Assembly: GCA_963718915.1 (NCBI GenBank)
Contig: CAVRAI010000003.1
Span: 642,103-706,102 of the forward strand
Length of the DNA: 64,000 bases
Origin: an uncultured Chloroflexia bacterium
GTDB lineage: Bacteria > Chloroflexota > Ktedonobacteria > Ktedonobacterales > JADMIN01
Direction: 5' to 3'
Shown: positions 292 to 55,120 of the stretch, in pieces
Numbering within the stretch: the stretch's first letter is position 1
Layout of the letters: every line of letters begins with the position of its first letter
Notes under the pieces: generated by a model
Told to the model about the DNA's origin: nothing
Database searches by the model: none
The model's input: only the letters and a program-made list of their open reading frames with translations
Made by a program: the position numbers and the translations under genes

Positions 292-683
292 AACTACCTC
301 CGGTAGGTTGTGAGTCTGGACGCCGATGGGCCGAGGTTAGCGTACAGGTCAAAAGCATGAGATGACACCGTAAGTTGGTGAAGTTCGCGGGATTAATACC
401 GCCCTACGCCCCTGGGTGAGTATGCTCCTTGCCTGGAGTTGAGTGATGCGCTCTGCCGATGATGCTGTAGTGGGAGAGGGGCATACTCTGCTTTTGGATA
501 GCGTGGAACTGCGCTTATGGACTCACCCGGCGTATGGCGCGGATGAAGCGGACGTTGACTATGCTCAAGATGCGTCCGGAGCGGGCGGCAGGTTGTCGTC
601 TCCATAGACGCAATGCGCGTAGAGGCGACAACGACAGGTTGAAGCGCGTTCAAGCGCGTTCACGAACACGAAGGAGAAGGCAA

Positions 684-1103
684 GTGTCGCAAATGTCTCA
701 TGCATTAGGGCGACGTCCCGGCCTCGTCACGTTCGCGGCAATCATGATGTTTCTGCTCGGCGGTTTCCAGCTCACCTTTGCGCTGGTGGAGTTTTGGCAG
801 GCGACGTGGATTCTGTTCAGCCCGTATGGCTCATTCGGCGGCTACCTGTGGCTGTGGGGCATCCTCGACGGGATCTTCGCGCTGATCGCGTTCTATGCGG
901 GCGCTGATCTCCTGCGCGGCGGATCCTTCGGGCGAATCGTCGGTATCCTGGTTGCCGCGTTTAGCGCAATCCGGTGGTTCTTCTATCTGCCCGTGGCTCC
1001 CTGGATGGCAGCGGTTGTTATCGCGGTGGACATCCTGATTATCTACGGCCTCGTGGCGCATTCTGAGTATTTCGACGAGGCGAATGCCGCGAGCGCTATG
1101 TAA
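684..1103 (+). CDS. HdeD/DUF308-like (possibly DUF7144-type) integral membrane protein
   Basis: ORF 534..1103. Start moved to GTG 684 (AAGGAG at 671-676); ATG 693 is also possible. Four hydrophobic helices are visible (LVTFAAIMMFLLGGF, WLWGILDGIFALIAFYAG, IVGILVAAFSAIRWFFY, MAAVVIAVDILIIYGLV). Confidence 0.6.
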   Translation: MSQMSHALGRRPGLVTFAAIMMFLLGGFQLTFALVEFWQATWILFSPYGSFGGYLWLWGILDGIFALIAFYAGADLLRGGSFGRIVGILVAAFSAIRWFFYLPVAPWMAAVVIAVDILIIYGLVAHSEYFDEANAASAM

Positions 1104-1134
1104 AACCAGCGCGTGTTATGAAGGGACAGCTAAC

Positions 1135-1614
1135 ATGATGCGAAGACGAATGGGTCGCCGGGTGCTCGCGACGGCGGCGGTTGGTGGCGCAGCCTATATG
1201 GTGGGCAGCCATTCCGCCAAGAAGAACGCCGCGGCACAACAGCAGGAAGAGGCTCAGAACCAACAGATTGCCGATCTCCAGGCACAGCAACAGGCGCAAC
1301 CGCAACAGGCGCAGCAGCAACCGCAGCAGGCGGATACGACGCAGCAGCAGTATGTGGCGCCACAGCAGCCACCACCACAACAGTACGCTCCGCCTCCACA
1401 GCAGCAATACGCGCCACCGCCACAACAGTATGCTCCGCCACCGCCGCAGGCGGCGCCTGAGCCGCCACCCGCGATTAGCACTACAGGGGAGCCATCGGCA
1501 GACCCCCAGGTGGTGATGGATGAGCTCAAACAACTGGGCGAGCTGAAGGCGGCTGGGGTGCTGACGGATGAGGAGTTCGCGGTGAAGAAGGCGGAGCTGC
1601 TCAAGCAAATCTGA
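1135..1614 (+). CDS. SHOCT domain-containing protein with Q/P-rich low-complexity linker
   Basis: ORF 1084..1614, start taken at ATG 1135 (MMRRRMG). Has a basic N-terminus, a PPPQQYA-type repeat linker and the C-terminal LKQLGELKAAGVLTDEEFAVKKAELL SHOCT signature. Paralogue at 54707..55120. Confidence 0.75.
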   Translation: MMRRRMGRRVLATAAVGGAAYMVGSHSAKKNAAAQQQEEAQNQQIADLQAQQQAQPQQAQQQPQQADTTQQQYVAPQQPPPQQYAPPPQQQYAPPPQQYAPPPPQAAPEPPPAISTTGEPSADPQVVMDELKQLGELKAAGVLTDEEFAVKKAELLKQI

Positions 1615-1658
1615 TGATGCTGATAGTGCTGGATAGCGGCCATCGCGGGAGGTGCTGT

Positions 1659-2114
1659 ATGACCATGGGACCGCTGGAATATGTTGTGATCGAGTTTGAA
1701 GGAAACCACTTTACCGGCGAGATCCTGCCGGAACTGCGGGCGTTGCGCAATCAGGGCGTCCTGCGCGTCGTCGACCTCGTCTTCATCCAGAAAGATGAGG
1801 CCGGGAATATGATGGCGCGTGAACTCAGCGATCTCAGCGAAGAGGAGGCAAAGCCGTTTGGCCCGATGGCTGGTGACATGCTCCGCCTGCTGACGCCGGA
1901 GGATATCGATGATGTCGCGGAGTCTGTACCCAACAATAGTTCGGCGGCGGTTGCCTTGCTCGAGCATACCTGGGCCATTCACTTGAAGGAGACCATCCAG
2001 AATGCGCGTGGCAGGGTCATTAGTGCGGGCATGGTGCCAGCGGAAGATGTAGAGGCGCTGGCGTCGGAACTGGAGGCGGAGCTGGCGGCGGAACAGACGG
2101 CAATCCCGCAGTAG
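1659..2114 (+). CDS. DUF6325-like soluble protein (family name from memory)
   Basis: ORF 1614..2114, start at ATG 1659 (GGGAGG 6 nt upstream). N-terminus is MTMGPLEYVVIEFEGNHFTGEILPELRALRNQGVLRVVDLVFIQKDEAG. No hydrophobic segment. Paralogues at 54241..54672 and 40457..41005. Confidence 0.65.
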   Translation: MTMGPLEYVVIEFEGNHFTGEILPELRALRNQGVLRVVDLVFIQKDEAGNMMARELSDLSEEEAKPFGPMAGDMLRLLTPEDIDDVAESVPNNSSAAVALLEHTWAIHLKETIQNARGRVISAGMVPAEDVEALASELEAELAAEQTAIPQ

Positions 2115-2188
2115 TCTCGTAAGTAGACGATACGCATCCCGCAGCGGGCGAGAAGCGAGAGAAACAAGAGGAGCGAGAGGAGCAAAGC

Positions 2189-2770
2189 ATGAGCAATCTA
2201 GTTGTCATCGCGTATCCCGATCAGTATCGGGCGGCAGAGGTGCTTGCGTCATTGAGACGGTTAAACAAGGAGTACCTGATCGACTTTGACGATGCGTGTT
2301 ACGTCACCAAGGATGCGTCGGGCAAGATCAAACTCCACCAGAACACCAGCCTTACCGGCGCGGCCGCTGCCTGGGGCGGCATGTGGGGGATGCTCATCGG
2401 ACTGCTGTTCTTTGTGCCATTCATCGGACTGGCCATCGGCGCGGGCCTCGGGGCGCTCTCTGGCAGGCTCGCTGACTACGGCATCGATGACAACTTCGCC
2501 AAGCAACTCACCCAGACCTTGCAGCCGAATAGTTCGGCTATCTTCGTGCTGGTGAGCAAGGCCACCCCGGACAAAGTGCTGCCTGAGGTTGCTAAGTACG
2601 GTGGCACTGTCCTCCAGACGTCCCTGCCAAAGGAGACCGAAGAGAAGCTCCAGGCGGCGCTGAGCCAGGGTGGCGGAGAGCAGGTTGCGCAGGCGCAGGC
2701 AGTCGCCGAGTCCCAGCCAGCCGCAGCCACTCAGGCGCCACCCCAGGCCGGAGCATCAGGCACAGCCTAG
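2189..2770 (+). CDS. DUF1269 domain-containing membrane protein
   Basis: ORF 2189..2770 with GAGGAG upstream. Soluble N-domain (MSNLVVIAYPDQYRAAEVLASLRRL), Gly-zipper hydrophobic hairpin (GAAAAWGGMWGMLIGLLFFVPFIGLAIGAGLGALSG), then YGIDDNF...PNSSAIFVLV. Paralogue at 53532..54107. Confidence 0.8.
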   Translation: MSNLVVIAYPDQYRAAEVLASLRRLNKEYLIDFDDACYVTKDASGKIKLHQNTSLTGAAAAWGGMWGMLIGLLFFVPFIGLAIGAGLGALSGRLADYGIDDNFAKQLTQTLQPNSSAIFVLVSKATPDKVLPEVAKYGGTVLQTSLPKETEEKLQAALSQGGGEQVAQAQAVAESQPAAATQAPPQAGASGTA

Positions 2771-2822
2771 TAGCGCATCCCAGCTGGATTCCGGCGCGGG
2801 ATATCGCGAAGAATCGCAACGG

Positions 2823-2846
2823 CCACAGGGGCTGCTTCTCCTGTGG
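2823..2846 (+). terminator. Candidate weak intrinsic terminator after the DUF1269 gene
   Basis: Hairpin CCACAGG-(10 nt loop)-CCTGTGG followed by ctgttctcattc. The T-tract is poor. Confidence 0.3.
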
Positions 2847-2923
2847 CTGTTCTCATTCGCGTTCGCGCCACGATACGCGCAATCGTAGCGGAGCTGGCTT
2901 CAGCAGGTGAGCCGGAGGCGGCG

Positions 2924-3712
2924 ATGGAAGAGCACTCAACTGGCACGGCGCCTCACAAGGTCGAGCATAGATTCCGCGCGCTTTCACGCCCCGCGGACAG
3001 TTTTGGAATCGTCTTGATTCTCCTCGTCCTCGATTACATCGCCGTCTCGGCGATCACTGACAACGCCTGGGGACGAGTCGTCATCGTTGTATTGCTGGGC
3101 GCTACCCTTCTGTTCGCGTTGCATACCTCACATGCTCGTCGTATCTGGCAGCTTCTGGCGGCGCTCTACCTCCTGGTGAGCACGCTGGTCACGGTCGTCA
3201 GCATCCTGGCGCCTGGCGCGACCGATTTTAGCTCGCAGACCTCCCTGGTGGGTGGATTGCTGTTGCTCATTACACCGGTCGCCATTTCGCGCCGCATCGT
3301 TTCGCACCGGTTTGTGACGACCGAGACGGTGCTCGGGGCGATATGTGTGTACTTGTTGATTGGTTTCTCATTCTCATTCATCTACTCGGCGATTGGTTTC
3401 GTGAGCGGCGCCCCCTTCTTCGGAGGCCAAATGCAGGCGACCGCGAACGACTACCTCTTCTTCAGCTACACCACGCTTACCACAGTAGGCTACGGCAATC
3501 TCATACCCGCGGGCAGTGTGGGGCAGACCTTCGCCATGCTCGAAGCGCTTACTGGCCAGATCTATCTGGTAATCGTCGTCGCACGGTTAGTCTCCCTCTG
3601 GGGCCAAGAGCGCCCCTCATCGGCAGTGAGAGGCATGCGCGGCGCGGAAACCAATAACACGCCGCAGGAGCGCGCCCAGTCTCCACAGACTCCCCAACCG
3701 CCAACCGGTTAG
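2924..3712 (+). CDS. Two-TM-type potassium channel family protein
   Basis: ORF 2843..3712. Start preferred at ATG 2924 (GGAGG 5 nt upstream). Selectivity filter TTLTTVGYGNLIP; several TM helices. Confidence 0.8.
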   Translation: MEEHSTGTAPHKVEHRFRALSRPADSFGIVLILLVLDYIAVSAITDNAWGRVVIVVLLGATLLFALHTSHARRIWQLLAALYLLVSTLVTVVSILAPGATDFSSQTSLVGGLLLLITPVAISRRIVSHRFVTTETVLGAICVYLLIGFSFSFIYSAIGFVSGAPFFGGQMQATANDYLFFSYTTLTTVGYGNLIPAGSVGQTFAMLEALTGQIYLVIVVARLVSLWGQERPSSAVRGMRGAETNNTPQERAQSPQTPQPPTG

Positions 3713-3919
3713 CCTTTCGGTGAGGCGCATTCCCCCCATTTGTATGGGCGGTGACTACCCTGCCAGACATACCTTGCGCATGAGGACAAGCCAGACCGCA
3801 CTCTATATGCTTCCCATATGCTTCCCATGTGCGCGCCAAATGCACGCGCGGCGCCAGGCCATGTGCCTGTCACGTCTGGGGTGGCAGTGTGTATGGGGAA
3901 TATGGGGAGAAACGCATCC

Positions 3920-5200
3920 ATGCGAGATTCGAAGAATACCGCGGCTGGGCAGCAACGGCGGCTTCCCTTGCCGAACCTGCGCCTGATTCTCGGTATCGTC
4001 GCCGCCGCGTTCGCGGTCATGCTGGTGTTGCAGGCGATCACTATTGCCGCGCTCACGATGGTGGACAGGCAGCGCAAACGCCGGAGCGCCCCGGCGGCTT
4101 TTCCGCATAGCGAGCTGCCCGAAGTCACCCTCGACGGTAGCTCTTTCCAGATCTACGTCTACGGGCGCGACCTCTACGATGCGATGCTTACCGCCATCGA
4201 TGAGGCTACCGACACCATCTATATGGAAACATTCATCTGGAAGGATGATGAGGCTGGCCAGGAATTCAAGGAGCATCTCGCGCGCAAGGCCGAGCAGGGG
4301 GTCGCGGTCTATGCGGTCTACGATGTCTTCGGCAATCTCGTGGTGCCGCGCGACTTTAAGCAGTTTCCCGCCAACATCCATCTGCTGCGCTACCGTGCCA
4401 TCCATCGCCTGCGCCACCTGCTCATGCCGCGCCGCTATGCCCTCGACCATCGCAAGCTGTTGATCGTGGATGGCCGGATCGCCTTTATCGGCGGCTACAA
4501 CATCGGCAGTCTCTACGCCACCGAATGGCGCGACACCCACCTGCGTATCACCGGGCCAGACGCCGCATTCATCGCCCAGGCGTTCGTCGACTTCTGGAAC
4601 CGGAACGCCCCGCGCTCCGATCTCATCAACAAACGCTACCAGCGACACTACAACGCCGCAATGGGCGTGCGCAGCAATGACGCGATGCGCCTGACATTCC
4701 CCATTCGCGACATGTATCTCAACGGAATCGACGCCGCCGACCGCGACATCCGCCTCACCAGCGCCTATTTTATTCCTGACCACGTCTTGCTGAACTCGCT
4801 CAAAGCGGCGGCGGCCCGTGGGGTGGATGTGCAGGTGCTCGTGCCGTGGACATCGAACCATATCGTCGCCGACTGGGCCTCCCACGCCTACTTCACTGAA
4901 TGCCTGCAAGCGGGCATCCGCATCTTTGGCTATGAGCACGCGATGATTCATGCCAAGACCTGTACCGTGGATGGCGAGCTTACGACCATCGGCACCGCGA
5001 ATATCGACCGGCTCAGCTCCGTTGGCAACTATGAGATCAACGCGGTGATTGTCAACCCGGACGTAGCCAGTCAGATGGAGCGCATCTTCGAGGCCGACAA
5101 ATCGAACGCGTTCGAGCTGACGCTGGAAAAGTGGCGTTCGCGCCCGTGGTACGTCAAAGCAAGCGAGCGGATCATCAAACCACTGCGGTTCGTCCTGTGA
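3920..5200 (+). CDS. cls: Cardiolipin synthase / phospholipase D family protein
   Basis: ORF 3818..5200. The start is uncertain (ATG 3893, 3902 or 3920). N-terminal TM LILGIVAAAFAVMLVLQAITIAAL. Two HKD motifs: HRKLLIVDGRIAFIGGYNIG and HAKTCTVDGELTTIGTANID. Confidence 0.75.
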   Translation: MRDSKNTAAGQQRRLPLPNLRLILGIVAAAFAVMLVLQAITIAALTMVDRQRKRRSAPAAFPHSELPEVTLDGSSFQIYVYGRDLYDAMLTAIDEATDTIYMETFIWKDDEAGQEFKEHLARKAEQGVAVYAVYDVFGNLVVPRDFKQFPANIHLLRYRAIHRLRHLLMPRRYALDHRKLLIVDGRIAFIGGYNIGSLYATEWRDTHLRITGPDAAFIAQAFVDFWNRNAPRSDLINKRYQRHYNAAMGVRSNDAMRLTFPIRDMYLNGIDAADRDIRLTSAYFIPDHVLLNSLKAAAARGVDVQVLVPWTSNHIVADWASHAYFTECLQAGIRIFGYEHAMIHAKTCTVDGELTTIGTANIDRLSSVGNYEINAVIVNPDVASQMERIFEADKSNAFELTLEKWRSRPWYVKASERIIKPLRFVL

Positions 5201-5219: not shown

Positions 5220-5792
5220 GTGACGCGCAGAATCGACTATAGCAGCGATGAATGGGCGCTCCTCACCATCACCCCGGAACTCATCGGACTCAAGATGCTC
5301 GCGGTCTCCCGGAGCGGCCCGATAGGCAAGCTGCGCGAGCTTGTCGCGCTCTCCGCATGCCTGACGCCCGAGTCTGTCCCCGCGCGATTCAGGCGCAACG
5401 AGCTGGTGCTGGCGCTGCTGGAGGATAGCGGGTTCCAATCCTCCACTGCTCTTTCGTGGGGCAGCATGAATGGACTGGCTACAACGATAGCAACCGCGCG
5501 GCTCCGGGCGTTGCCTTCGTGTGAGAAAGTCGCCGCCCTGCTCATGGATAAGACGCCGTGGGCTGAGGCGGATGGCGTGAAGCGATGGCTGTTCTGGCTG
5601 GCTACGTCTGTCGCGCGGGCGAGCAGCGATGGGTGGCTAGGTTTTGGACGGAGGGTGAGCGCGGAGGAAGCGACGTTGCTGCGGCAGATCGCCACATCGC
5701 TTCATCTCTCTCTGGCCGACCCGATTCCATCCATAGGCCACCTCGATACGACACACCCTGCGCTACAGGATGTCGAAGATGTTCCTGGGTAG
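5220..5792 (+). CDS. Hypothetical protein
   Basis: ORF 5220..5792 (GTG start), co-directional with its neighbours. No motif recognised. Confidence 0.4.
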   Translation: MTRRIDYSSDEWALLTITPELIGLKMLAVSRSGPIGKLRELVALSACLTPESVPARFRRNELVLALLEDSGFQSSTALSWGSMNGLATTIATARLRALPSCEKVAALLMDKTPWAEADGVKRWLFWLATSVARASSDGWLGFGRRVSAEEATLLRQIATSLHLSLADPIPSIGHLDTTHPALQDVEDVPG

Positions 5793-20289: not shown

Positions 20290-20988
20290 CTAGGCGGGGC
20301 TTGGCCCGGTGTCGCTGCCAGATGCGGTAGCCTCGGGAGGAGGCGTTTCGCCACTGGCCGGAGTAGCCGTGGAAGTGTTTGGGGTTGATGGGCCAGGCGT
20401 CGCCGCGCTCTGCGTGGATGCGCTCGACGCGGATGTGTCGGTCGCTGTCGCTGCTGCTGAGCCACCGGCTACCGGAACCTCGACAGGCTGCTCCGCATCG
20501 AGCTGCGCGGCGATATCTGCCCGCACCGCCTCGGTGACGACGTCCGCGCCATACTGCTGAAGCTCAGCCTCCACCTCGCGCACCCAGACGTCCTCGATCA
20601 CGGCGATCAACGCCGAGGTGTTGGGCTTCAGTCCCTTGCCGACCTCGCGCAGACGGTCGTCTGGAAAACCGGCGTCGTGCAGCCGGGCAGAGAACCCGCC
20701 GACGGCCGCCCCTACCGCAGCGCTTGCCAGGATCGATGGCGGGAAGATGAGGCCAACCACCCCACCGATGACACCACCAATCACCGCGCCTTTGCCGCCA
20801 CGCATGTCGGCGGTTTCTTTGAAGTGGAGCTTGCCGTCCCCATCCTTCCAGAGGACGGCGGCGTTGCGGATGCCAATCAGCCGATCCTTTTTGGCCTGTT
20901 TGAGTTCGCCCAGCGCCTTCTCAGCGCCATCCTCGTCTTTGAACGCGGCGAGTACGACTTCTACGGGTACATCGCTCTCTTTGCTCAT
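20290..20988 (-). CDS. DUF1269-related membrane protein (orphan member)
   Basis: ORF 20290..21015, start at ATG 20988 (AGGAGG upstream). VEVVLAAFKDEDGAEKALGELKQ, Gly-zipper GKGAVIGGVIGGVVGLIFPPSILASAAVGAAVGGFS, then PNTSALIAVIEDVW. Low-complexity S/T/A tail. Confidence 0.65.
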   Translation of the reverse strand: MSKESDVPVEVVLAAFKDEDGAEKALGELKQAKKDRLIGIRNAAVLWKDGDGKLHFKETADMRGGKGAVIGGVIGGVVGLIFPPSILASAAVGAAVGGFSARLHDAGFPDDRLREVGKGLKPNTSALIAVIEDVWVREVEAELQQYGADVVTEAVRADIAAQLDAEQPVEVPVAGGSAAATATDTSASSASTQSAATPGPSTPNTSTATPASGETPPPEATASGSDTGPSPA

Positions 20989-21167: not shown

Positions 21168-21764
21168 CTACGCGGCCACCATGGCGCCCATCCGTTTGAT
21201 CGCGAACGCCTTGATGATGTCGCTTATACCATGGAGGAGCGCCCAGACTCCCGAAAAGATGAGCAGTGTATAGGCCTGTGTGGCAAGAAACTGGCCGCCC
21301 GCCCAGAAGCCCAAAAGAATCATGATGATCCCGGAGATCAACCCGAGCCACCACATCGAATTGGTTGCCATGGTCGCGAATGCTTCAATCATCCAGAAGA
21401 TGCCGACCAGCGCGAACAGGAAGCCGAGCAGATTGGCCACCGCGAGGAAGGTCTGCACCGGGTTAACCAGGGCATAGATGCCTCCAATGAGGAGGATCAC
21501 CCCGAAGACAGCCCAGAGCCATCGCCAGCCGCCCGAGACAAAGGCAACGGTCAGTTCCTCTATTCCGGCCACCAGGAACATGATGCCAATCACGATACCG
21601 ACGAGCGTGAGCGAGCTATTCCTGAACTGCAGAATGACAATCGAGGCGAGAATCCACAGGATTCCACTGACGAGCCACCCCCACCACCACTTGCTCAGCT
21701 CTCGCGCCGCCTGGCGGGTCTCCGCGGTTTGTGGTTGCGCCGCGGCGTTCATCGACGTATCCAT
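21168..21764 (-). CDS. HdeD family (DUF308) membrane protein
   Basis: WWWGWLVSGILWILASIVILQF followed by repeated DUF308-like helices (FLVAGIEEL, LLIGGIYALVNP, MILLGFWAGG). Confidence 0.8.
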   Translation of the reverse strand: MDTSMNAAAQPQTAETRQAARELSKWWWGWLVSGILWILASIVILQFRNSSLTLVGIVIGIMFLVAGIEELTVAFVSGGWRWLWAVFGVILLIGGIYALVNPVQTFLAVANLLGFLFALVGIFWMIEAFATMATNSMWWLGLISGIIMILLGFWAGGQFLATQAYTLLIFSGVWALLHGISDIIKAFAIKRMGAMVAA

Positions 21765-36704: not shown

Positions 36705-37931
36705 ATGGATTCGACCGACCGTCTTGATGGCGCAGGCAGCACAGGTGGTGTAGCGCCCAGAGTTGACCCATCCGCGCGGCGTCGTTTCTCCATCACGATC
36801 ACGACGCGCAGCCTCCTGCTGGCGGCGGCTATCGGCGTCGCCATCCTGGTTGGCGTGATTGTCATCACGCAGGCGCTGGGGACGTTGATCTCCCTTGTGC
36901 TGGCCATCATTCTTGGCGAGGCCATCCGGCCAGTGGTGGCCTGGTTGCGGAAGTATCGGATTCCCGCCCCACTGGCGGTTTTACTCATCTATGTGGTGGG
37001 CGCTGTGGTTTTCGGCGTGCTTATCTGGCTGCTGCTGAACCCAATCATCAGCCAGATCAACAATCTGACCACCCACCTCCCGGAGTATCTCCAGCGCCTT
37101 CAGCAACACGCAGACGATCTGGAGCGGCAACTGCGTGCTCAGAGCGCGCTCTCGGGCCTCATCGACACGATCTCCCAATCGCTGGCGAACCTCGCGCAAC
37201 AGTTTATCCCCAGGCTGATCGCGGTGCCCTTGGGGCTGCTAACTGGCGTCTTCAGCCTCTTCATCAATGCCGTGATCCTGCTGACGATGACCCTCTTCTG
37301 GTTTTTGGCTACGGACGAGCTCAAGCCGTTCGTCGTCGGGCTTTTCCCGGAAGCCTCGCAAGACCATGCGTCGCAGGTATTCACCGAGATAGGGCGGGCG
37401 TTCGGCGGCTACATTCGGGGCACGCTGATCGCTATGCTCTTGATTGGGAGCTTGACTGGCGCCGGCCTTGCGCTGCTCGGGGTGCCCTACGCCTTGCTGC
37501 TGGGGATCCTGGCCGGGTTCACCGAGCTCCTACCGTACCTGGGGCCGTGGATTAGTGGGACCGTCTCGGTTCTGGTTGCGCTAATTACGGTGGACCCGGG
37601 CAAAGCACTCCAGGTGGTCTTGTTGTTTATCTTGATCCAGAATATCGAGGGCAATGTGATAGAGCCGTTGGTGATGAGCCGTGCGGTGAAGATCAATCCG
37701 CTGGTGGTGATCGTTGCGGTGCTGATCGGGCTGGACCTGTTGGGAATCGTTGGCGCGATCCTGGCGGTGCCCGTTGCCGCAGCTATCCAGATCATCATAT
37801 TGCGCGTGCTGGCGCCAGCGATCCGTCGGTCGTCGGCATCCTCCGCGCCACCTCCCGTCGAGGTGATGACGGTCGAGTCGACCGCGCCACCCGATGCCAG
37901 CGTGGCGGGCCAACCTGTGACGGAGACGTGA
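36705..37931 (+). CDS. AI-2E family transporter (PerM/UPF0118)
   Basis: ORF 36567..37931, start at ATG 36705 (GGAGAGGAG upstream). FGGYIRGTLIAMLLIGSLTGAGLALLGVPYALLLGILAGFTELLPYLGPWISG. Confidence 0.85.
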   Translation: MDSTDRLDGAGSTGGVAPRVDPSARRRFSITITTRSLLLAAAIGVAILVGVIVITQALGTLISLVLAIILGEAIRPVVAWLRKYRIPAPLAVLLIYVVGAVVFGVLIWLLLNPIISQINNLTTHLPEYLQRLQQHADDLERQLRAQSALSGLIDTISQSLANLAQQFIPRLIAVPLGLLTGVFSLFINAVILLTMTLFWFLATDELKPFVVGLFPEASQDHASQVFTEIGRAFGGYIRGTLIAMLLIGSLTGAGLALLGVPYALLLGILAGFTELLPYLGPWISGTVSVLVALITVDPGKALQVVLLFILIQNIEGNVIEPLVMSRAVKINPLVVIVAVLIGLDLLGIVGAILAVPVAAAIQIIILRVLAPAIRRSSASSAPPPVEVMTVESTAPPDASVAGQPVTET

Positions 37932-39000
37932 TGCTAGCTATTGCCTCTCTCCTGCTTTTGCGCTGTCCGGTGCGGCTTCGGTGGCTACCGGTGGCTTCGG
38001 TGGCTTCGGTGGCTTCGGTGGCTTCGGTGGCTTCGGTGGCTTCGGTGGCTTCATCCGCATGAAGGCGCGCTGCCTGCAGGATCGCCGGAATATCCCCGCC
38101 CACCAGCCGCCGCCCCGCGATCCATGAGTTCAGCTCCGCGCCGAGGAGCAGGATGAAGCCGAGATAGTAGAAGAAGATGAGGATCACCACGGCGAATCCC
38201 GCGACGGAGCCGTAGTTGTCTGGCCGCAGGAAGCGGCTCACATAGAGGGGAAAGAGGCTGATGTATGGAACCAGCAGCACCGTGGCGAGCAGCGTCCCCG
38301 GAATAACCTGCCGGAGGCGAATGCGCCGGTTGGGCACGATGAGATAGATGGCGCCGAACAGGATAAACGCGGAGAGCACTGCCACGATATTCCCCAGCAC
38401 GCCAGCGAGCGCCGCCTGACCAGAGTCCGCCAGGTATGGATCGACGAGTCTGACGATGGCCGAGGGCAGCGAGAAGGCCAGCGCGATGAGTGGCGTGAGA
38501 ATGAGATACAGCGCGAGCATGCCAAACGCCATCAGTTGTTTCGGGATCAGATCGCGCCCGCGCACGCGGAAGATGATTCCGAAGCAGGTCTCGATGACCA
38601 TGAACAGGTTCGACCCGCCAAGCACCGACCCCACCAGGCCAATGAGGAAGAGCAGCCCGACATTCGTGGTCAGCTGGTTCGCGACCGCATGAAATATCTC
38701 GGCTCCGCCAGGGATAACCTGTGCAAACACCTGCTCGATATGCGCATAGATGCTGGAAGCATGGTCGCCAAGGATGAGTCCCACGGCAGCGAGCAAGAGG
38801 AGCAAGATCGGGAAGAGCGACATCAGGAGGTTATAAGCCAGCATCCCCGAGAGATTGAAGACCCAATCGTCATTGAGTTTGGTCCAGAAGTCGAGCAGGG
38901 GCTGGATCGTCTTGAGAACGCGCCGCACCAGGCTGAATCGCATCCAGGGCTGTTGTTGTTCCATTGGGTCGGCCTCGTGGAAGCGCTCGCGCGCCGTCAC
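37795..39000 (-). CDS. YihY/BrkB family membrane protein with an (EAT)n repeat tail; the annotated 3' end is probably an artefact of a frame change in the repeat
   Basis: FWTKLNDDWVFNLSGMLAYNLLMSLFPILLLLLA is typical of YihY. The GTG start at 39000 overlaps the upstream protease stop (GTGA). The tail overlaps the convergent AI-2E gene by 137 nt. Confidence 0.8.
   Translation of the reverse strand: MTARERFHEADPMEQQQPWMRFSLVRRVLKTIQPLLDFWTKLNDDWVFNLSGMLAYNLLMSLFPILLLLLAAVGLILGDHASSIYAHIEQVFAQVIPGGAEIFHAVANQLTTNVGLLFLIGLVGSVLGGSNLFMVIETCFGIIFRVRGRDLIPKQLMAFGMLALYLILTPLIALAFSLPSAIVRLVDPYLADSGQAALAGVLGNIVAVLSAFILFGAIYLIVPNRRIRLRQVIPGTLLATVLLVPYISLFPLYVSRFLRPDNYGSVAGFAVVILIFFYYLGFILLLGAELNSWIAGRRLVGGDIPAILQAARLHADEATEATEATEATEATEATEATGSHRSRTGQRKSRREAIASITSPSQVGPPRWHRVARSTRPSSPRREVARRMPTTDGSLAPARAI
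37974..38052. repeat. 9-nt tandem repeat (ggcttcggt), about 8 units, one 10-nt variant unit at 37983-37992
   Basis: Read directly from the sequence. Encodes the EAT repeats of the YihY tail on the minus strand. Confidence 0.9.
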
Positions 39001-40184
39001 CCGGTTGCGCTGGTAGGTCGTTCTCCCAGCGTCACCGTCATGGTCTGCTGGGAGGAGCCGCGCTGGACGGTCACCTGAACCCGCGTGCCGGGCGAGAGGG
39101 AGAGCAGGATGCCTGCCAGGTCAGCATTGCCGGTGACCCTGGCGCCATTCACGGCGACAATGATATCGCCCTGTTGCATGCCAGCCTGCTGCGCGGGGCT
39201 TTGTCCGGCGGCGTCAGAGACGAAGCCGGTTACCAGCACACCGGAATTGACGGGCAGGTTGTTTGCCGATGCCAGGTCTGGGGTCACGTCGGCGCCAGTG
39301 ATACCAAGGAAGCCCTGGCCGCTGTTTACCACACGGCCATTCTTCACGAGCTGGTCGGCGACGAATTTGACCCGGTTCACCGGGATCGCGAAGCCGATGC
39401 CCTCCGCCGCCGCGCCAGAGGAAGGGATGGTCGCCGATAAGGTGGGGATGCCAATCAGTTCCTCCTGCAAGTTCACCAGCGCCCCGCCCGAATTGCCTGG
39501 ATTGATGGGCGCGCTGGTCTGGATGAGGCCGGTCAGCACGCCTGCGGGGCCGTTGGGCGCTTCGCTGGCCGTCCGGTTGAGCGCGCTCACAATGCCAAAC
39601 GTGGCCGACTGTTGCAGGCCAAGCGGCGCACCAATCGCGAGGACGAATTCGCCGACCTGCACCGCGCTTGAATTTCCAAACTTGATCGGCCGTAACCCGG
39701 TGGCGCTGACCTTCAGCACGGCCAGGTCATCGGCAGGCGCCTCGCCGACGAGCGTCGCGGGTAGCGTCTTTCCATTGGAGAGCAAGACGTGAAATGAGGT
39801 GAACCCCTGAACCACGTGGTCGTTGGTGACAATGTTGCCGTCGCTGGAGATGATTTCGCCCGACCCAATCGCGCCTGATCCATCGGCGCTGGCGCTCTGC
39901 ACCTCGACGACGGAGGGCTGAACGGCGGGGATAACGTTCACGGGCGCCTGGGGAAGTGCGGATGCTCCACCAGATGACGATGATGACGAGGAGTTTGCCG
40001 TGGGGGTCGTTAATCCCTGTCCTGGATTCGTGCCGGGGAGCGCACAGCCGCCGATGAGCAGAGCGATGGCAAGCGCGATGGCGCCCAACCCGCCCGGCCA
40101 CCACGCTGACAACCTGGCATATCGCGCCGTGCGCCGCGCCCCTGTCGTGACGCCGCCACATGAATCATCTGCATTCACGGCCAT
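38997..40184 (-). CDS. S1C (HtrA/DegP-like) serine protease with C-terminal PDZ domain, membrane-anchored
   Basis: ORF 38997..40316, start preferred at ATG 40184. TM WWPGGLGAIALAIALLIGG. Triad context TNDHVV, DLAVLKV, GNSGGALVNL. PDZ-like tail (GVLVTGFVSDAAGQSPAQQAGMQQGDIIVAVNG). Confidence 0.85.
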   Translation of the reverse strand: MAVNADDSCGGVTTGARRTARYARLSAWWPGGLGAIALAIALLIGGCALPGTNPGQGLTTPTANSSSSSSSGGASALPQAPVNVIPAVQPSVVEVQSASADGSGAIGSGEIISSDGNIVTNDHVVQGFTSFHVLLSNGKTLPATLVGEAPADDLAVLKVSATGLRPIKFGNSSAVQVGEFVLAIGAPLGLQQSATFGIVSALNRTASEAPNGPAGVLTGLIQTSAPINPGNSGGALVNLQEELIGIPTLSATIPSSGAAAEGIGFAIPVNRVKFVADQLVKNGRVVNSGQGFLGITGADVTPDLASANNLPVNSGVLVTGFVSDAAGQSPAQQAGMQQGDIIVAVNGARVTGNADLAGILLSLSPGTRVQVTVQRGSSQQTMTVTLGERPTSATG

Positions 40185-40286
40185 TTCCCTTTGCGGTTGG
40201 TTGCCAGCCAGCGGTCTTCCGTGGGGATGATTCCTTACCAGCGGCGCGCAATGTGCTGTCGCTGGCGCGTTGCGCCGTAATCTGCG

Positions 40287-40321
40287 CATAAGCAATAAGC
40301 AATAAGCAATAAGCAATAAGC
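40287..40321. repeat. 7-nt tandem repeat (aataagc) x5
   Basis: cataagc aataagc aataagc aataagc aataagc, read directly. Lies upstream of the preferred protease start. Confidence 0.9.
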
Positions 40322-40456: not shown

Positions 40457-41005
40457 TTAGTGCATCTGCTGTGACTGCGAGGTATCGGTCTGGGTAGCCG
40501 CCATATCAGCCGCGGCGAGCCTGGACCCCATAGCGATCAAGGTCTCGGGGTGCACCATGCCCTGCGCCAGTACCACGCCGCCGGTCGACTGCAGCGCTTC
40601 TTTTAGCGGGATAGCCCAGCGATGCTCGACCAGCACCAGCACGCCCGTCGTCCCTTCCGGGATATCTTTGGCGATGTTCTTGATGTCATCGGCAGAGAGG
40701 CCGAAGTCGTGGTCGGAGAATGCCACAGCGCCCATTTCCGCGCCGGTTTCCACGCCTTCATCACCGGCGGCGCCATAGCCCAGCAGCCCCCCGATGACGG
40801 CGCCCATTTCCGCGCGCTGGTCGGTGGTGAGGTCGCTCGCGCCGAGCGATACCACTGTGCCATCCTTTTCTTTCTGTATGGCGAGCGCATCGAGCACGCG
40901 GATGGTACCCGACTGACTTGCCTTCTCCAACTCCTGAGCAATTCGCCCTTTCAGATTCTCATTTGGCAATCCCAATACGAAGAGTTGAACCGGACCCAGA
41001 GTCAT
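40457..41005 (-). CDS. DUF6325/DUF1269-related protein, intermediate form with a short Gly-rich insert
   Basis: ORF 40457..41113, start at ATG 41005 (AAGGAGA upstream). MTLGPVQLFVLGLPNENLKGRIAQELEKASQSGTIRVLDALAIQKEKDG, insert GAVIGGLLGYGAAGDEGVETGAEMGAV, then GTTGVLVLVEHRWAIPLKEAL. Confidence 0.6.
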   Translation of the reverse strand: MTLGPVQLFVLGLPNENLKGRIAQELEKASQSGTIRVLDALAIQKEKDGTVVSLGASDLTTDQRAEMGAVIGGLLGYGAAGDEGVETGAEMGAVAFSDHDFGLSADDIKNIAKDIPEGTTGVLVLVEHRWAIPLKEALQSTGGVVLAQGMVHPETLIAMGSRLAAADMAATQTDTSQSQQMH

Positions 41006-41219
41006 CTTTCTCTCCTTCCGCATGCGACTCGCCCGCGCCGACAATTGGCGCATGTCGGGGTCGCCATGGACGTACGCCTCCAGTGTAGTTCGAATCGTTA
41101 CTCGCGCCCTCATGCAGCGGGCGCGTTTCGCGGGTCAGCTTCAGGCACTGTGTTGGGTCAGCGCCAACCTCGCCCAGGGGTGAGCAGGCGCATAACGTCC
41201 ATCCCCGCACCCCGAAGGG

Positions 41220-41519
41220 CTAATACGACTGGGCGGGATTTCCCTGAATCTGATTGCGATTGCGCCATGCGCCGCCCGCGTAGGTCGTGATATCGAGGAG
41301 CAATCCGATCCCGATCCAGAACCAGCCCCAGCCGACGGCTGGCCAGACGAAGACATACATGATCGTCGTGAACGGCAGGAATGCGAGGCCAAGCAACGGC
41401 CCGACAAACGTGTTGAAGGCGCGGTCAACCAGGGGGGTGAATAACCACATGAAGAGCAGCGCCACACGCGGGAAGCTCGCGGCGAGAATGGCAAATAGGC
41501 ATCCACATCCTAATAACAT
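41220..41519 (-). CDS. Small membrane protein (99 aa), unknown family
   Basis: ORF 41220..41519. Three hydrophobic segments (LFAILAASFPRVALLFMWLF, LLGLAFLPFTTIMYVFVW, WFWIGIGLLLDI). Confidence 0.5.
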   Translation of the reverse strand: MLLGCGCLFAILAASFPRVALLFMWLFTPLVDRAFNTFVGPLLGLAFLPFTTIMYVFVWPAVGWGWFWIGIGLLLDITTYAGGAWRNRNQIQGNPAQSY

Positions 41520-41619: not shown

Positions 41620-41958
41620 TTACGACGGCGAAGGCGAAGGACTGGGCGCGGCTCCCGGAGCTTGCCCCGCTGGCGCCTGTGGAGGCGCGGCCTGCGGCGC
41701 GGCTGATTGCGGTATCCCCGGCATTCCTGACATTCCTGGCATTCCCTGCACCGCCACTGGCGCCATGGGATTTGCGGGCCGTGTGACGAGGTAGGCCAGC
41801 GCGCCGAGCCAGGGGAAGAAGATGATCAGCGCCACCCACAGCCCCTTCTGCCATCCAACAAGGTCTGGCCGTTTGACCGCATCCGCCAGCACCAGAAACC
41901 AGATGATGGTGAGAGGTATGAAGATGAATAGCAGCCAGAACCAATCCCAGGCAGTCAT
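41620..41958 (-). CDS. PLDc_N (PLD nuclease N-terminal) domain small membrane protein with Pro/Gly-rich tail
   Basis: MTAWDWFWLLFIFIPLTIIWFLVLADAVKRPDLVGWQKGLWVALIIFFPWLGALAYLV matches my recollection of the PLDc_N pattern (K..W...I...P.LG...YL). Confidence 0.65.
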   Translation of the reverse strand: MTAWDWFWLLFIFIPLTIIWFLVLADAVKRPDLVGWQKGLWVALIIFFPWLGALAYLVTRPANPMAPVAVQGMPGMSGMPGIPQSAAPQAAPPQAPAGQAPGAAPSPSPSPS

Positions 41959-52041: not shown

Positions 52042-52974
52042 CTAGAAGAGCGCGCCGCCAGTGAGCTGATTGACGATCGTTTTCATGCGATTCGAGGAGA
52101 TAGCGAAACCGATGCCATTGGCGGCAACCCCGGTCGAAGGCTCTACCGCTGCGAGGGTCGGGATGCCGACAAGCTGCCCTTGCAGGTTGACCAGCGCCCC
52201 ACCACTATTGCCAGGGTTGATCGGCGCGCTCGTCTGGATCATGCCAGTGATCGTGAATCGCTGGTTATCCACCACCTCGGTCGCGGAACGATTGAGCGCG
52301 CTGATGATGCCGGATGTGGCCGATTGCTCGAGTCCCAGTGGGCTGCCCACGGCAAGGGCAAACTCGCCGACCACCACCTTGCTGGAATCGCCAACTGCTA
52401 TCGGCTTGAGGTCGGTCGCATTGACTTTCAGCACCGCCAGGTCTTCGGAGGGCGCCTCGCCGATCAGCGTGGCGGGAATCTGCTGGCCATTTGCCAGCAG
52501 CACTGTATAGGTAGAGAGGCCGTGAACGACGTGGCTATTCGTCACGATGTAGCCATCCGAGGTCAGAATCTCGCCTGACCCGATGCTTCCGCCCGTGAGG
52601 CCGCCGCGCCCCTGTATCTGCACGACCGATGGATCGACGTTATGGATGACGTTGATGGTGGTCGCCTCGATGTCCGTACCGGAGGGCGCCGATGAGGTAG
52701 ACGACGTGCCATTAGTCCTCCCAGCTAACGTCCCCGCCCCAAAGATGAGACCGAAAAGCACAGCCGCGCCGAGGGCAATCCAGAGCGGTCGCCAGGAATG
52801 GCCTTGTCTCGTCTGTTGCGCGGTCGGTGGTGGCGCGGATGGCGCAATCGATGGCGTGGCTTGTGGTGCGACAGGTGGCGTGGCTGGAGAGGTTGCGCCA
52901 TTCACTGGCATACTGGTAGAAACCGGCGAATTAGGTACGTTGAAGGCGCGTGGATCCCTGGAATTGTCTTGCAT
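52042..52974 (-). CDS. S1C (HtrA-like) serine protease without PDZ domain
   Basis: ORF 52042..53016, start preferred at ATG 52974 (AGGAG 7 nt upstream). TM RPLWIALGAAVLFGLIFGAG. TNSHVV, DLAVLKV, GNSGGALVNL. The protein ends right after the protease domain. Confidence 0.8.
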   Translation of the reverse strand: MQDNSRDPRAFNVPNSPVSTSMPVNGATSPATPPVAPQATPSIAPSAPPPTAQQTRQGHSWRPLWIALGAAVLFGLIFGAGTLAGRTNGTSSTSSAPSGTDIEATTINVIHNVDPSVVQIQGRGGLTGGSIGSGEILTSDGYIVTNSHVVHGLSTYTVLLANGQQIPATLIGEAPSEDLAVLKVNATDLKPIAVGDSSKVVVGEFALAVGSPLGLEQSATSGIISALNRSATEVVDNQRFTITGMIQTSAPINPGNSGGALVNLQGQLVGIPTLAAVEPSTGVAANGIGFAISSNRMKTIVNQLTGGALF

Positions 52975-53531
52975 ATAGTGGCTCCTGGTTGGGACGTTCT
53001 GCAGCCCCTTCAGCATTGCCTTACAGCGCGGACTCCAGAAAGCCCTGTTTTAATGGAAGTCTGCCGCTCCACATGAAGTACCCGGACGCCTCACACATGA
53101 TGGAGTATCAGGTATGAGGCGTCGGGCAGATACGCAGACATCGCTGGTCACAAGTGTACGAGTTGGCAGCGCCTGTTTCACCACCTGTCGGGTGAGTCCA
53201 AACGACGTGTTTTGTAGCTGTCCAAAGCTACGACACGCGCCTATCCCGAAGGGGAGCATCGGCTTGCCATGTTGCGTCGCCGATGTGCCATGTCGGGCGC
53301 TCTGGGCCATCCATCGGTGCGCCAACTCACCCTGGAGGGAGATAGCCGCTCACCTTGATGTCTCACCCAGGGTGTGAAGCTCATAGGCAAGGCGCATGCC
53401 TATACTTGGTTTATGCTGGCTGGATTCTGGGGGATTTTCGGCGTCGAGTCAGCGGCTTTCAATGCTGGATTATTGATCCATGGTGTTGACAGAACCATTC
53501 TGTATGCTTTGCCCGAAGGAGAAGAAACGAC

Positions 53532-54107
53532 ATGAGCGATCTGGTTGCCATCACATACCCAGATATCAATCAGGCACAGAAAACACTCGATACGCTGAAG
53601 CGCATGGTGGTTGAGCATCTGCTTGAGCTAGACGATGCCGTCTATGTCACCAAGGATAGTAACGGCGCGGTGGATATGCATCAGATGATTAACCTGCCCG
53701 CGGCGGGCGCGGCGACTGGCGGCGCGACCGGCGCCCTCTGGGGAACGCTGATCGGCCTGCTCTTCCTCTCGCCACTCGCGGGGGCTGCCATTGGGGCAGC
53801 GGTTGGCGCGGGCACGGGCGCCATCGCGGGAAAGATGAGCGACTATGGTATTGACGATAACTTTGTCCAAGACCTGAGCGCCCATATGCCGCCGAATAGC
53901 TCGGCCATCTTCGTCCTGGTGCGCAATGTGACGGTGGATAAGGTGATCCCAGAGATCAGCAAATATGGCGGCACGGTCATGCGTACCTCGCTCTCGGACG
54001 ATGCGGAACAACGCCTTCAGGCAGCGCTCGCGCAACGATCAACCGCTGGGGCGTCGGCCGCCGCAACTCCACCGACAACCACTGACACGCCATCGCAGCC
54101 AGCGTAG
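53532..54107 (+). CDS. DUF1269 domain-containing membrane protein (cassette B)
   Basis: AAGGAGAAG upstream. MSDLVAITYPDINQAQKTLDTLKRM..., Gly-zipper GAATGGATGALWGTLIGLLFLSPLAGAAIGAAVGAGTGAIAG, YGIDDNF...PNSSAIFVLV. Confidence 0.8.
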   Translation: MSDLVAITYPDINQAQKTLDTLKRMVVEHLLELDDAVYVTKDSNGAVDMHQMINLPAAGAATGGATGALWGTLIGLLFLSPLAGAAIGAAVGAGTGAIAGKMSDYGIDDNFVQDLSAHMPPNSSAIFVLVRNVTVDKVIPEISKYGGTVMRTSLSDDAEQRLQAALAQRSTAGASAAATPPTTTDTPSQPA

Positions 54108-54240
54108 GCTGGTTAGAAGACAAACAGTCTGAGAAAAGTCTGAGAAAAGCCGGAGGCATCGTGCCATAGATGCCTCTTGCGGAACATAAGCAGGCGCGCG
54201 AGAGCTACGCGCGCCTCGCCAGATGATTGCGAGGCCTGAG

Positions 54241-54672
54241 ATGGGACTTGGCCCGGTCGAATATGTCATGATTGAGTTTCCAGGCGCTACCGAGATTGGC
54301 GACATCGAGCCAGCGCTTCAGGAACTGGTGTCCTCAGGGACTGTCCGCATTATCGACCTGATGTTTATCAAGAAAGATGCGGAGGGGCACATCCAGGCGC
54401 TGGAGGTTGACCAACTCGACAGCGTGAGCGCTCACCGGTATGAGGAGCTGGACGCCGAGGTCGACGACCTGGTGAATATGGAAGATATCGAAATCGCTGC
54501 GGCGGAACTATTGCCTGATAGCATCGCGGTGGTGCTGGTCTGGGAGGATGCCTGGGCCAAACGGTTCGGGGAGACCATGCGGGCCGCGGGCGGGCGTGTG
54601 GTGGAAATCGAGCGGATTCCTAGCGAGGTGGTCGAAGCGGCTATGAGGGCAAGCGTGGGAGCGGATGCGTAG
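54241..54672 (+). CDS. DUF6325-like soluble protein (cassette B)
   Basis: ORF 54223..54672, start preferred at ATG 54241. MGLGPVEYVMIEFPGATEIGDIEPALQELVSSGTVRIIDLMFIKKDAEG. Confidence 0.7.
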   Translation: MGLGPVEYVMIEFPGATEIGDIEPALQELVSSGTVRIIDLMFIKKDAEGHIQALEVDQLDSVSAHRYEELDAEVDDLVNMEDIEIAAAELLPDSIAVVLVWEDAWAKRFGETMRAAGGRVVEIERIPSEVVEAAMRASVGADA

Positions 54673-54706
54673 AGCCTGAACTGCGGTAGAGAGGACGAAC
54701 CCGATT

Positions 54707-55120
54707 ATGATGCGACGAGGTGGAGCACTGGGACGGCGCGGCCCTGGCCTGCTTGGAACGATGGCGCGAACCGCGGTGATCGCGGGGACGGCCACGGCGG
54801 TCTCCAAAGGGGTGAGTGGTTCAATGAATCAACGCGCCGCACAACAACAGACGGCGCAGCAACAGCAACAGCAGGCGGCATTTGACGCGGGCTACCAGCA
54901 GGCGCAGACGCAAGAACAGGCGCAACAACAGCAACAGCAACAGCAGCAGATGCAGGCGGCTCAGGCTCAGGCTGGGGCGCCACAGGCCGCTAGCCCGGCC
55001 TCGACTACCGATGCCATGATCGCGCAATTGCAACAACTGGCCGAGCTACAGAAGCTGGGGATTCTGACGCCAGACGAATTCGCCCAGCAGAAGGCGAGGG
55101 TTTTAGGCGGCGCGAACTAA
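54707..55120 (+). CDS. SHOCT domain-containing protein with poly-Q linker (cassette B)
   Basis: MMRRGGALGRRG..., Q-rich linker, C-terminal IAQLQQLAELQKLGILTPDEFAQQKARVLG. Confidence 0.75.
   Translation: MMRRGGALGRRGPGLLGTMARTAVIAGTATAVSKGVSGSMNQRAAQQQTAQQQQQQAAFDAGYQQAQTQEQAQQQQQQQQQMQAAQAQAGAPQAASPASTTDAMIAQLQQLAELQKLGILTPDEFAQQKARVLGGAN

Follow-up and report, generated by a model that had tools for sequence, protein, structure and literature searches.

In the Firmicutes, the soluble stress protein Asp23 is held at the membrane by the small anchor protein AmaP. SHOCT-like domains in phage shock protein (PSP) systems have been predicted to fix globular domains to the inner leaflet of the membrane (PMC11237479), and DUF1269 has been described as a ferredoxin fold with an embedded glycine zipper (GlyZip), in Microcystis proteins encoded near ccyA (bioRxiv 10.1101/2024.07.07.602159). 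Here we describe a four-gene cassette (cassette A, genes g1 to g4) for a DUF7144, a SHOCT, a DUF6325 and a DUF1269 protein in a 64,000-nucleotide (nt) stretch of DNA, hereafter the window, from an uncultured Ktedonobacterales bacterium (contig CAVRAI010000003.1, positions 642,103 to 706,102 of the forward strand). Comparison with other genomes indicated that the SHOCT and DUF6325 proteins form a near-obligate pair, the conserved core of the cassette, and that the DUF6325 and DUF1269 proteins are paralogues carrying the same α/β domain without and with a hairpin. All four families are catalogued in Pfam, common (DUF1269 gave nearly 4,000 matches in one search) and functionally blank. An earlier annotation made from the letters alone, the sequence-only reading, had held that none of them has an experimentally defined role, and our literature search agrees for all four: nothing was found on DUF6325 or DUF7144, DUF1269 appears in gene lists or in passing mention in addition to one structural note, and SHOCT is treated as a family of still undefined function.

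The SHOCT–DUF6325 pair at the core of cassette A

Cassette A consists of four co-directional genes, assigned to families by Pfam profile search with the curated gathering cut-offs.

684..1103, + strand: g1, DUF7144 membrane protein; GTG start at 684, preceded by AAGGAGAAGG; DUF7144 (PF23636), 65.9 bits against a cut-off of 27, E 4e-18
1135..1614, + strand: g2, SHOCT protein and putative tether; ATG start at 1135, preceded by GAAGGGA; SHOCT (PF09851), 36.9 bits against a cut-off of 27, E 3e-9, residues 129-156 of 159
1659..2114, + strand: g3, DUF6325, predicted soluble acidic α/β domain; ATG start at 1659, preceded by GGGAGGTG; DUF6325 (PF19850), 33.1 bits against a cut-off of 23.4, E 7e-8, profile positions 2-139 of 141
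2189..2770, + strand: g4, DUF1269, glycine-zipper hairpin inside the domain and a low-complexity tail; ATG start at 2189, preceded by GAGAGGAG; DUF1269 (PF06897), 133.2 bits against a cut-off of 26.9, E 4.6e-39, profile positions 1-99 of 100

The four open reading frames (ORFs) were present where the sequence-only reading had placed them, the gaps of its tight array had the same values on re-measurement (31 nt between g1 and g2, 44 nt between g2 and g3, 74 nt between g3 and g4), and a purine-rich stretch ahead of each start agreed with its proposal of a separate ribosome-binding site per gene. For g3 the start was placed at ATG 1659 and not at the upstream ATG 1614, because homologues begin at the same MTMGPLEY. 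The labels SHOCT, DUF6325 and DUF1269 also held in the profile searches, all three scoring above the Pfam cut-offs, and close homologues of g3 are named DUF6325 by NCBI. The label 'HdeD-like' for g1, however, had to be replaced: Pfam gave DUF7144 alone, with no match to HdeD/DUF308 (PF03729) at E<=5, and hhalign of DUF7144 orthologues against the DUF308-type proteins of the window reached an E value of 0.13. The hydrophobicity profile of g1 showed four Kyte-Doolittle peaks, corresponding to four hydrophobic spans.

About nine further Ktedonobacterales loci, with proteins 62-96% identical, retain the order DUF7144-SHOCT-DUF6325-DUF1269. These are the loci L002, L004, L005, L007, L010 and L011 and a 182-kb JGI contig, together with L001/L006, in which a histidine kinase is inserted after DUF7144 and the rest of the order is retained. 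In L002 the four genes stand together at ~62-75% protein identity amid completely different flanking genes, and since the order is retained despite this divergence, a chance juxtaposition of the four genes is ruled out. Judged from this conservation of gene order, from the short gaps and from the strong hairpin after g4 (below), cassette A has a conserved operon anatomy and is probably one transcription unit.

To place the cassette among its relatives, one genome per species was scanned, which gave 34 DUF6325 loci from Chloroflexota, Actinomycetota (including Streptomyces boninensis), Saccharimonadales and Rhodobacterales metagenome-assembled genomes. A small SHOCT gene adjoined the DUF6325 gene on the same strand, upstream or downstream, in 31 of the 34 loci, the two genes overlapping by a few nt (up to ~16) at the closest and lying ~50 nt apart at the widest, and two of the three loci without an adjacent SHOCT gene were cut by contig ends. 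Non-adjacent SHOCT matches amounted to one in the 478 kb of examined loci, and all-against-all clustering of the flanking ORFs gave no universal DUF6325 neighbour besides SHOCT. Co-occurrence of the cassette's families in other genomes, on which the sequence-only reading had staked its case, was thus strongly enriched for SHOCT and DUF6325, whereas the adjacency of DUF1269 (10 of 34 loci) and of DUF7144 proved to be lineage-restricted.

The g2 protein has an Arg-rich N-terminus, a 15-residue motif of small residues (VLATAAVGGAAYMVG), a linker of ~95 residues rich in Q, P and A (34% Q, 23% P, 18% A) and a C-terminal SHOCT domain. This layout is common to the 31 SHOCT partners, which come from four phyla and have a small-residue motif of 15-20 residues (TAAVGGAAYMVGS or ARTAVVAGTATAVS) followed by a Q/A/P-rich linker. 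Kyte-Doolittle analysis revealed no 19-residue hydrophobic (transmembrane) window in g2, nor was such a window found in the partner proteins. In one locus (L019, 6472-6777) the SHOCT partner is without the SHOCT helices, apparently by a frameshift, and may be a decayed copy or an assembly error. The DUF6325 counterpart of g2 in the window, g3, showed neither a signal peptide nor a transmembrane span and is acidic, with 28 D/E against 10 K/R. In a 99-sequence alignment (A5) with g3 as the reference row, the family-conserved D39 and W105 and the near-invariant P5, G49, E55, D82, E102 and G118 were all present in g3.

A DUF6325 profile search gave 5,216 representative clusters at 50% identity, and fusions were sought among the best 149 of these, the great majority of which are stand-alone proteins of ~145 residues. 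Four of the 149 joined DUF6325, a linker and SHOCT in a single chain (SHOCT profile E 3e-18 to 4e-9), and for one of these fusions (L040), found in three samples or more, the gene stands immediately behind a DUF1269 gene. The fusions are without the N-terminal motif of the separate partner. Because single chains dispense with it, this hints that the motif joins the two proteins or sits at the membrane interface and does not span the membrane. The SHOCT domain must be cytoplasmic, since DUF6325 has no signal peptide and the fusions put SHOCT on the same chain; by the same deduction, the g2 motif cannot be read as an N-in/C-out transmembrane segment. Adjacency and fusion together argue that SHOCT and DUF6325 are a near-obligate pair.

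A second type of fusion, of a receiver (REC) domain with DUF6325, was found in two of the best 149 representative clusters. One of them, present in two samples, comes after a sensor histidine kinase and a REC-GerE regulator and is followed by the canonical SHOCT partner. Histidine kinases also stand beside or inside the cassette in relatives, and a kinase with a REC-GerE regulator adjoins a further copy of the system in the window (module B, below). The fusions themselves tie the DUF6325 domain, as far as domain architecture can tell, to two-component signalling.

Two other interpretations of the cassette proteins were tried and dropped. A gas-vesicle link via GvpG (PF05120) was suggested by a match of g2 at 21.5 bits, below the cut-off of 30.6 and confined to the SHOCT helices, and no further gvp genes were found in the 64-kb window. 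A role in anti-phage defence was set aside after PADLOC gave no matches for g1-g4 or module B. An antisense ORF (1254-1982, - strand) overlaps g2 and g3 and is seemingly conserved across loci by mirroring the sense genes; the long antisense ORFs over g2/g3 are an artefact of high G+C content and not genes.

A shared domain with and without a glycine-zipper hairpin

Alignment with hhalign of 74 DUF6325 against 43 DUF1269 sequences gave a probability of 97.5% and an E value of 5e-12 over 139 columns, end to end, with the glycine-zipper hairpin of DUF1269 appearing as an insertion. In g4 this hydrophobic hairpin comprises residues ~57-93 (AAAAWGGMWGMLIGLLFFVPFIGLAIGAGLGALSG), with Kyte-Doolittle peaks of 1.75-2.39. 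The DUF1269 profile recovered almost all DUF6325 ORFs of the fetched loci, and g3 also shows a weak DUF1269 Pfam match. An AlphaFold2 model of g3 (pLDDT 77.5, pTM 0.70; predicted local distance difference test and predicted template modelling score, respectively) has the element order β-α-β-β-α-α-β-α-β-α. The model of g4, with a mean pLDDT of only 53.7, follows the element order of g3 with two extra helices at the hairpin, and its predicted order β-α-β-β-hairpin-α-β-α-β could correspond to ferredoxin-like halves. By profile alignment, g3 and g4 are paralogues that carry the same α/β domain without and with the hairpin.

Further members of this superfamily, which has six genes in the window, are found in three modules outside cassette A.

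53532..55120, + strand: module B, with genes for DUF1269 (53532-54107), DUF6325 (54223-54672) and a putative SHOCT tether (54707-55120)
40457..41008, - strand: module C, an intermediate member with a Gly-rich, non-hydrophobic insertion, matching PF19850 and PF06897
20290..21764, - strand: module D, a DUF308 membrane protein (21168-21764), then DUF1269 (20290-20988)

Module B has the gene order of most loci from outside the Ktedonobacterales, and its DUF1269 paralogue matches the Gly-zipper_Omp and Gly-zipper_YMGG models. The module C protein scores above the cut-off for both families, and its insertion sits at the same place as the DUF1269 hairpin. None of six loci of the hairpin or insertion type (modules C and D, the second copies in L002 and L007, and the loci L046/L047 and L044) has a SHOCT neighbour. 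DUF7144 adjoins members with a glycine zipper in cassette A, L002, L045 and L046, in four different arrangements, and DUF308 does so in module D and L043. Because the hairpin and insertion forms elsewhere adjoin DUF7144 or DUF308 and not SHOCT, cassette A can be read as an outer pair, DUF7144 with DUF1269, that encloses an inner one, SHOCT with DUF6325. The distribution of neighbours indicates that the two ways of anchoring, by a hairpin or by a SHOCT tether, are alternatives that exclude each other.

Two observations concern individual members of the superfamily. In L045 a DUF1269 gene (3627-3998) is cut off just before the adjacent DUF7144 gene and may be a decayed copy or an assembly error. 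Five insertion-type proteins (P0313, P0359, P0364, P0381 and P0389) have C-terminal extensions of 100-200 residues with Ala/Glu-rich helical repeats of the motif (A/V)(D/E)(L/I)IEE; their SHOCT-like look was not borne out, as they match neither the SHOCT profile nor any Pfam family.

Some matches in the PDB were likewise discarded. Residues 11-28 of g3 (window 1659-1760), FEGNHFTGEILPEL, resemble the plant leucine-rich repeat (LRR) consensus and yield spurious PDB matches to FLS2, ERL and BRI1-like kinases, with E values down to 6e-7. We attribute these matches to plant LRR kinases to a chance FxGNxFTGEIPxEL-like motif, as no stretch passes alone. PDB sequence matches to prion glycine-zipper segments were rejected as structural relatives.

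Non-coding elements and genomic surroundings

The cassette is flanked by two conserved non-coding elements and followed by genes for a K+ channel and a cardiolipin-synthase-like protein.

484..607, + strand: conserved non-coding block of ~125 nt upstream of g1
2818..2851, + strand: stable hairpin with a 14-bp stem after g4, then UUCUCAUUC
2843..3712, + strand: K+ channel (Ion_trans_2, TVGYGN filter), after cassette A
3818..5200, + strand: cardiolipin-synthase-like protein with two phospholipase D (PLD) domains, syntenic in six relatives

The hairpin after g4 had been called weak, at 2823-2846, and was found to be strong: the 100-nt region folds at -50.8 kcal/mol (z = -4.4), and in four related genomes the stem is kept with a varying loop. 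It is likely a terminator or attenuator that parts the cassette from the K+ channel gene. Read from its first start codon, the K+ channel ORF overlaps the hairpin. Its true start is probably ATG 2925, which is favoured because of the comparison with the L006 orthologue and leaves an intergenic region of ~150 nt.

The block upstream of g1 is ~95% conserved in L004, L005, L010 and L011 amid diverged flanks, is weakly retained in L008 and is reduced to a 28-nt core in L001/L006. RNAalifold gave no covariation support for it, Rfam had no match at gathering score anywhere in the window, and no convincing sigma-70 promoter was found upstream of g1. A riboswitch or known RNA at this position was rejected on the Rfam and covariation results. 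The block may act as the cassette's promoter or leader, specific to this lineage.

Pfam matches confirmed the K+ channel and the cardiolipin synthase that the sequence-only reading had placed downstream of the cassette, and both genes are syntenic in 5-6 relatives. The K+ channel was found at the same place in L001/L006, L004, L005, L010, L011 and the JGI contig. Additionally, a different, Kv-like K+ channel comes after DUF1269 and the DUF6325::SHOCT fusion in L040, and in L046 two DUF1269 genes flank a PLDc_2 gene. The window also encodes a CLC channel, cytochrome bd, MarC, PPK2, a P-type cation ATPase, SulP and a second PLD protein, as well as an M48 peptidase, an AI-2E transporter, BrkB, two HtrA-like proteases, SBF and Band 7 proteins. 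These associations with ion and membrane genes are suggestive of a stress context, though not a general one. The envelope or ion-stress role proposed in the sequence-only reading is guilt by association, somewhat strengthened by the independent recurrences of K+ channel and PLD genes.

Several other genes in these surroundings deserve mention. Between the cardiolipin-synthase-like gene and a DUF2254 gene lies an ORF of 190 residues (5220-5792) with no Pfam or NCBIfam match, which is conserved in L002, L004, L008 and L011. The HtrA-like trypsin-fold proteases are encoded beside module C (38997-40316, - strand) and beside module B (52042-53016, - strand), one of them with a PDZ domain. Upstream of module C are a small PLDc_N membrane protein (41620-41958, - strand), which is phospholipase-D-related, and a 99-residue membrane ORF (41220-41519, - strand) with no Pfam match. 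The C-terminal tail of the BrkB/YihY-like protein (37795-39000, - strand) contains a perfect tripeptide repeat, (EAT)x6. An ORF at 46291-47289 matches a Cas12f1-like/TnpB TNB domain, which suggests an IS200/IS605-type element.

Proposed role, alternatives and relation to known systems

The explanation towards which we lean is that the products of cassette A make up an assembly of one ancient α/β domain, placed at the cytoplasmic side of the membrane and active in membrane or ion stress. In such an assembly g4 would display the domain by its internal glycine-zipper helical hairpin, inserted in the membrane, and g3 would be a soluble, acidic copy without a hairpin that is brought to the membrane by g2. 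The Arg-rich, small-residue motif at the N-terminus of g2 would dock on g3 or lie in the membrane interface, and the long disordered Q/P-rich linker would end in the SHOCT two-helix domain, by which g2 would attach to the membrane or to a partner. With its four spans, g1 would be the integral-membrane companion of the hairpin-bearing copy. The hairpin and the split SHOCT tether may thus be two interchangeable devices for displaying the same domain. In cassette A g3 and g4 would be co-expressed and, since pairing is frequent among paralogous domains of this sort, they probably co-assemble. Under stress the assembly might act in the homeostasis of membrane and ions: it could, for instance, stabilise anionic-lipid membrane, reorganise it or modulate ion flux. 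Its activity may be set by two-component signalling.

A number of points weigh against this explanation. The g4 model is of low confidence (pLDDT 53.7), and Foldseek of g3 against the PDB gave no significant solved relative (best E 9e-3, template modelling (TM) score <=0.37); the fold therefore yields no functional clue. The K+ channel and PLD neighbours are absent from most DUF6325-SHOCT loci. The sample of 34 loci was drawn by a single peptide pattern and may be biased. In that sample DUF1269 adjoins the g2-g3-type pair in only 10 loci, and DUF7144 stands beside it only in Ktedonobacterales, so a four-protein complex is not general. In addition, the experiments of the SHOCT founding paper did not support oligomerisation (PMC3581485).

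A bolder version, which we consider doubtful, holds that DUF1269, DUF6325 and SHOCT with DUF7144 or DUF308 are an unrecognised, widespread membrane-stress or ion system, in which the hairpin forms would build a pore or a ring that is regulated by the soluble paralogue, itself controlled by two-component signalling. If true, SHOCT would for the first time have a partner and a function assigned to it.

Glycine zippers drive homo-oligomeric packing, and the DUF1269 hairpin has long GxxxG-type zippers. DUF1269 might accordingly form a pore or ring by itself, comparable to glycine-zipper channels and SlyB-type rings, with g3, delivered by g2, as a cytoplasmic plug or regulator. The match of the module B paralogue to Gly-zipper_Omp and Gly-zipper_YMGG is in line with this, and g3 is homologous to the cytoplasmic domain of g4 and could compete or co-assemble with it. 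We nevertheless regard such a pore as rather unlikely: the hairpin region of g4 was modelled at pLDDT <50, the Gly-rich insertion of module C and its relatives is non-hydrophobic and cannot span a membrane, and most g2-g3 pairs have no adjacent DUF1269 gene.

The position of the Ion_trans_2 channel, directly after DUF1269 in the window and in the syntenic loci named above, and of the unrelated Kv-like channel in L040 after DUF1269 and DUF6325::SHOCT, would also suit a role of g2-g4 as accessory or regulatory subunits of the neighbouring K+ channel. Pfam detects no cytoplasmic regulatory domain in the window channel itself, and the α/β domain could be a ligand-binding domain like ACT, PII or CutA that gates the channel or fixes its location. 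However, about 27 of the 34 DUF6325-SHOCT loci have no K+ channel within 6 kb, L002, L007 and L008 keep the cassette without it, modules B, C and D have no channel neighbour, and the strong hairpin stands between g4 and the channel gene. A channel-bound role is thus improbable in our view.

The receiver fusions in two clusters, one of them in a histidine kinase/REC-GerE operon with the SHOCT partner retained, and the histidine kinases that adjoin or interrupt the cassette in relatives could be taken further, with the whole module as a signalling output. DUF6325 would then be an effector switched by phosphorylation or a ligand, the SHOCT protein its target and the membrane neighbours incidental. 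As a receiver domain occurs in only 2 of the 149 representatives, the great majority being stand-alone proteins, and as the hairpin-bearing paralogues and their DUF7144/DUF308 partners are left unexplained, we give this little credence. Finally, that four unrelated small ORFs stand together by coincidence, without being a functional unit, would fit the occurrence of each family without the others and the lineage-restricted adjacency of DUF7144 and DUF1269, but is effectively refuted by the order conserved down to 62% protein identity with changed flanks, by SHOCT and DUF6325 being adjacent in 31 of 34 loci and fused elsewhere, and by the homology of g3 and g4.

What is new here is that families which were separate are joined: by the paralogy, by the pairing of SHOCT with DUF6325 and the fusions of the two, by alternative ways of anchoring and by fusions to receiver domains. 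The SHOCT domain, described by Eberhardt et al. in 2013, gains a defined candidate partner, and the presence of a membrane hairpin in DUF1269 but not in DUF6325 finds a possible reason. Streptomyces (L027) also has the DUF6325-SHOCT pair, which provides an entry via genetically tractable organisms. If the membrane or ion-stress role is true, envelope-stress biology beyond the Proteobacteria and Firmicutes would gain a new component; otherwise, any alternative would still be constrained by the pairing and the fusions.

Compared with other SHOCT proteins, g2 ends in a canonical SHOCT domain, and the arrangement of globular domain, linker and SHOCT is the same, here in trans or, in the fusions, in cis. 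The globular domain is normally on the same chain, whereas the dominant form here is split into two genes, and the SHOCT partner has a conserved Arg-rich, small-residue N-terminal motif of its own. The predicted anchoring of SHOCT-like domains at the inner leaflet (PMC11237479) fits the cytoplasmic topology deduced for SHOCT here. Unlike the PSP systems, the cassette has no PspA, Toastrack or PspC genes adjacent to it.

As in the Microcystis proteins, the glycine-zipper hairpin of g4, a full member of DUF1269 (PF06897/IPR009200) at 133 bits, lies within a soluble domain, which in g4 may be ferredoxin-like; the preprint makes no connection to DUF6325, SHOCT or DUF7144 (bioRxiv 10.1101/2024.07.07.602159). 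The link to the CutA1/NikR fold drawn there was not reproduced for g3 against the PDB (best E 9e-3, TM 0.37). HdeD/DUF308 acid-resistance proteins are, like g1, small multi-span membrane proteins, and DUF308 precedes DUF1269 in module D and L043 as DUF7144 does in cassette A. However, g1 has no DUF308 signal, and this parallel is one of position, not of demonstrated homology.

YflT (general stress protein 17M) of Bacillus subtilis is of similar size and by eye shares a β-α-β ... 'GF/GI-D-x-x-A' segment. The YflT sequence used for this comparison was confirmed as carrying the YflT domain. Homology to YflT/Gsp17M (PF11181) is not claimed: hhalign against the DUF1269 and DUF6325 profiles gave E values of 0.05 (probability 1%) and 0.35, Pfam gave no PF11181 match for g3 or g4, and the module B paralogue remained below threshold (E 0.18, 12.7 bits against 26.2).

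The closest working principle is that of Asp23 and AmaP, in which a soluble small protein is recruited to the cytoplasmic face of the membrane by an adjacently encoded partner. Asp23-family genes stand a few kb from the cassette in two relatives. The two systems have no sequence relationship, with no Asp23, DUF2273 or AmaP match in g1-g4, and the likeness is one of analogy only. In all, g1-g4 are ordinary members of four catalogued families, and the cassette is akin to SHOCT-tethered or membrane-anchored small proteins of the stress type.

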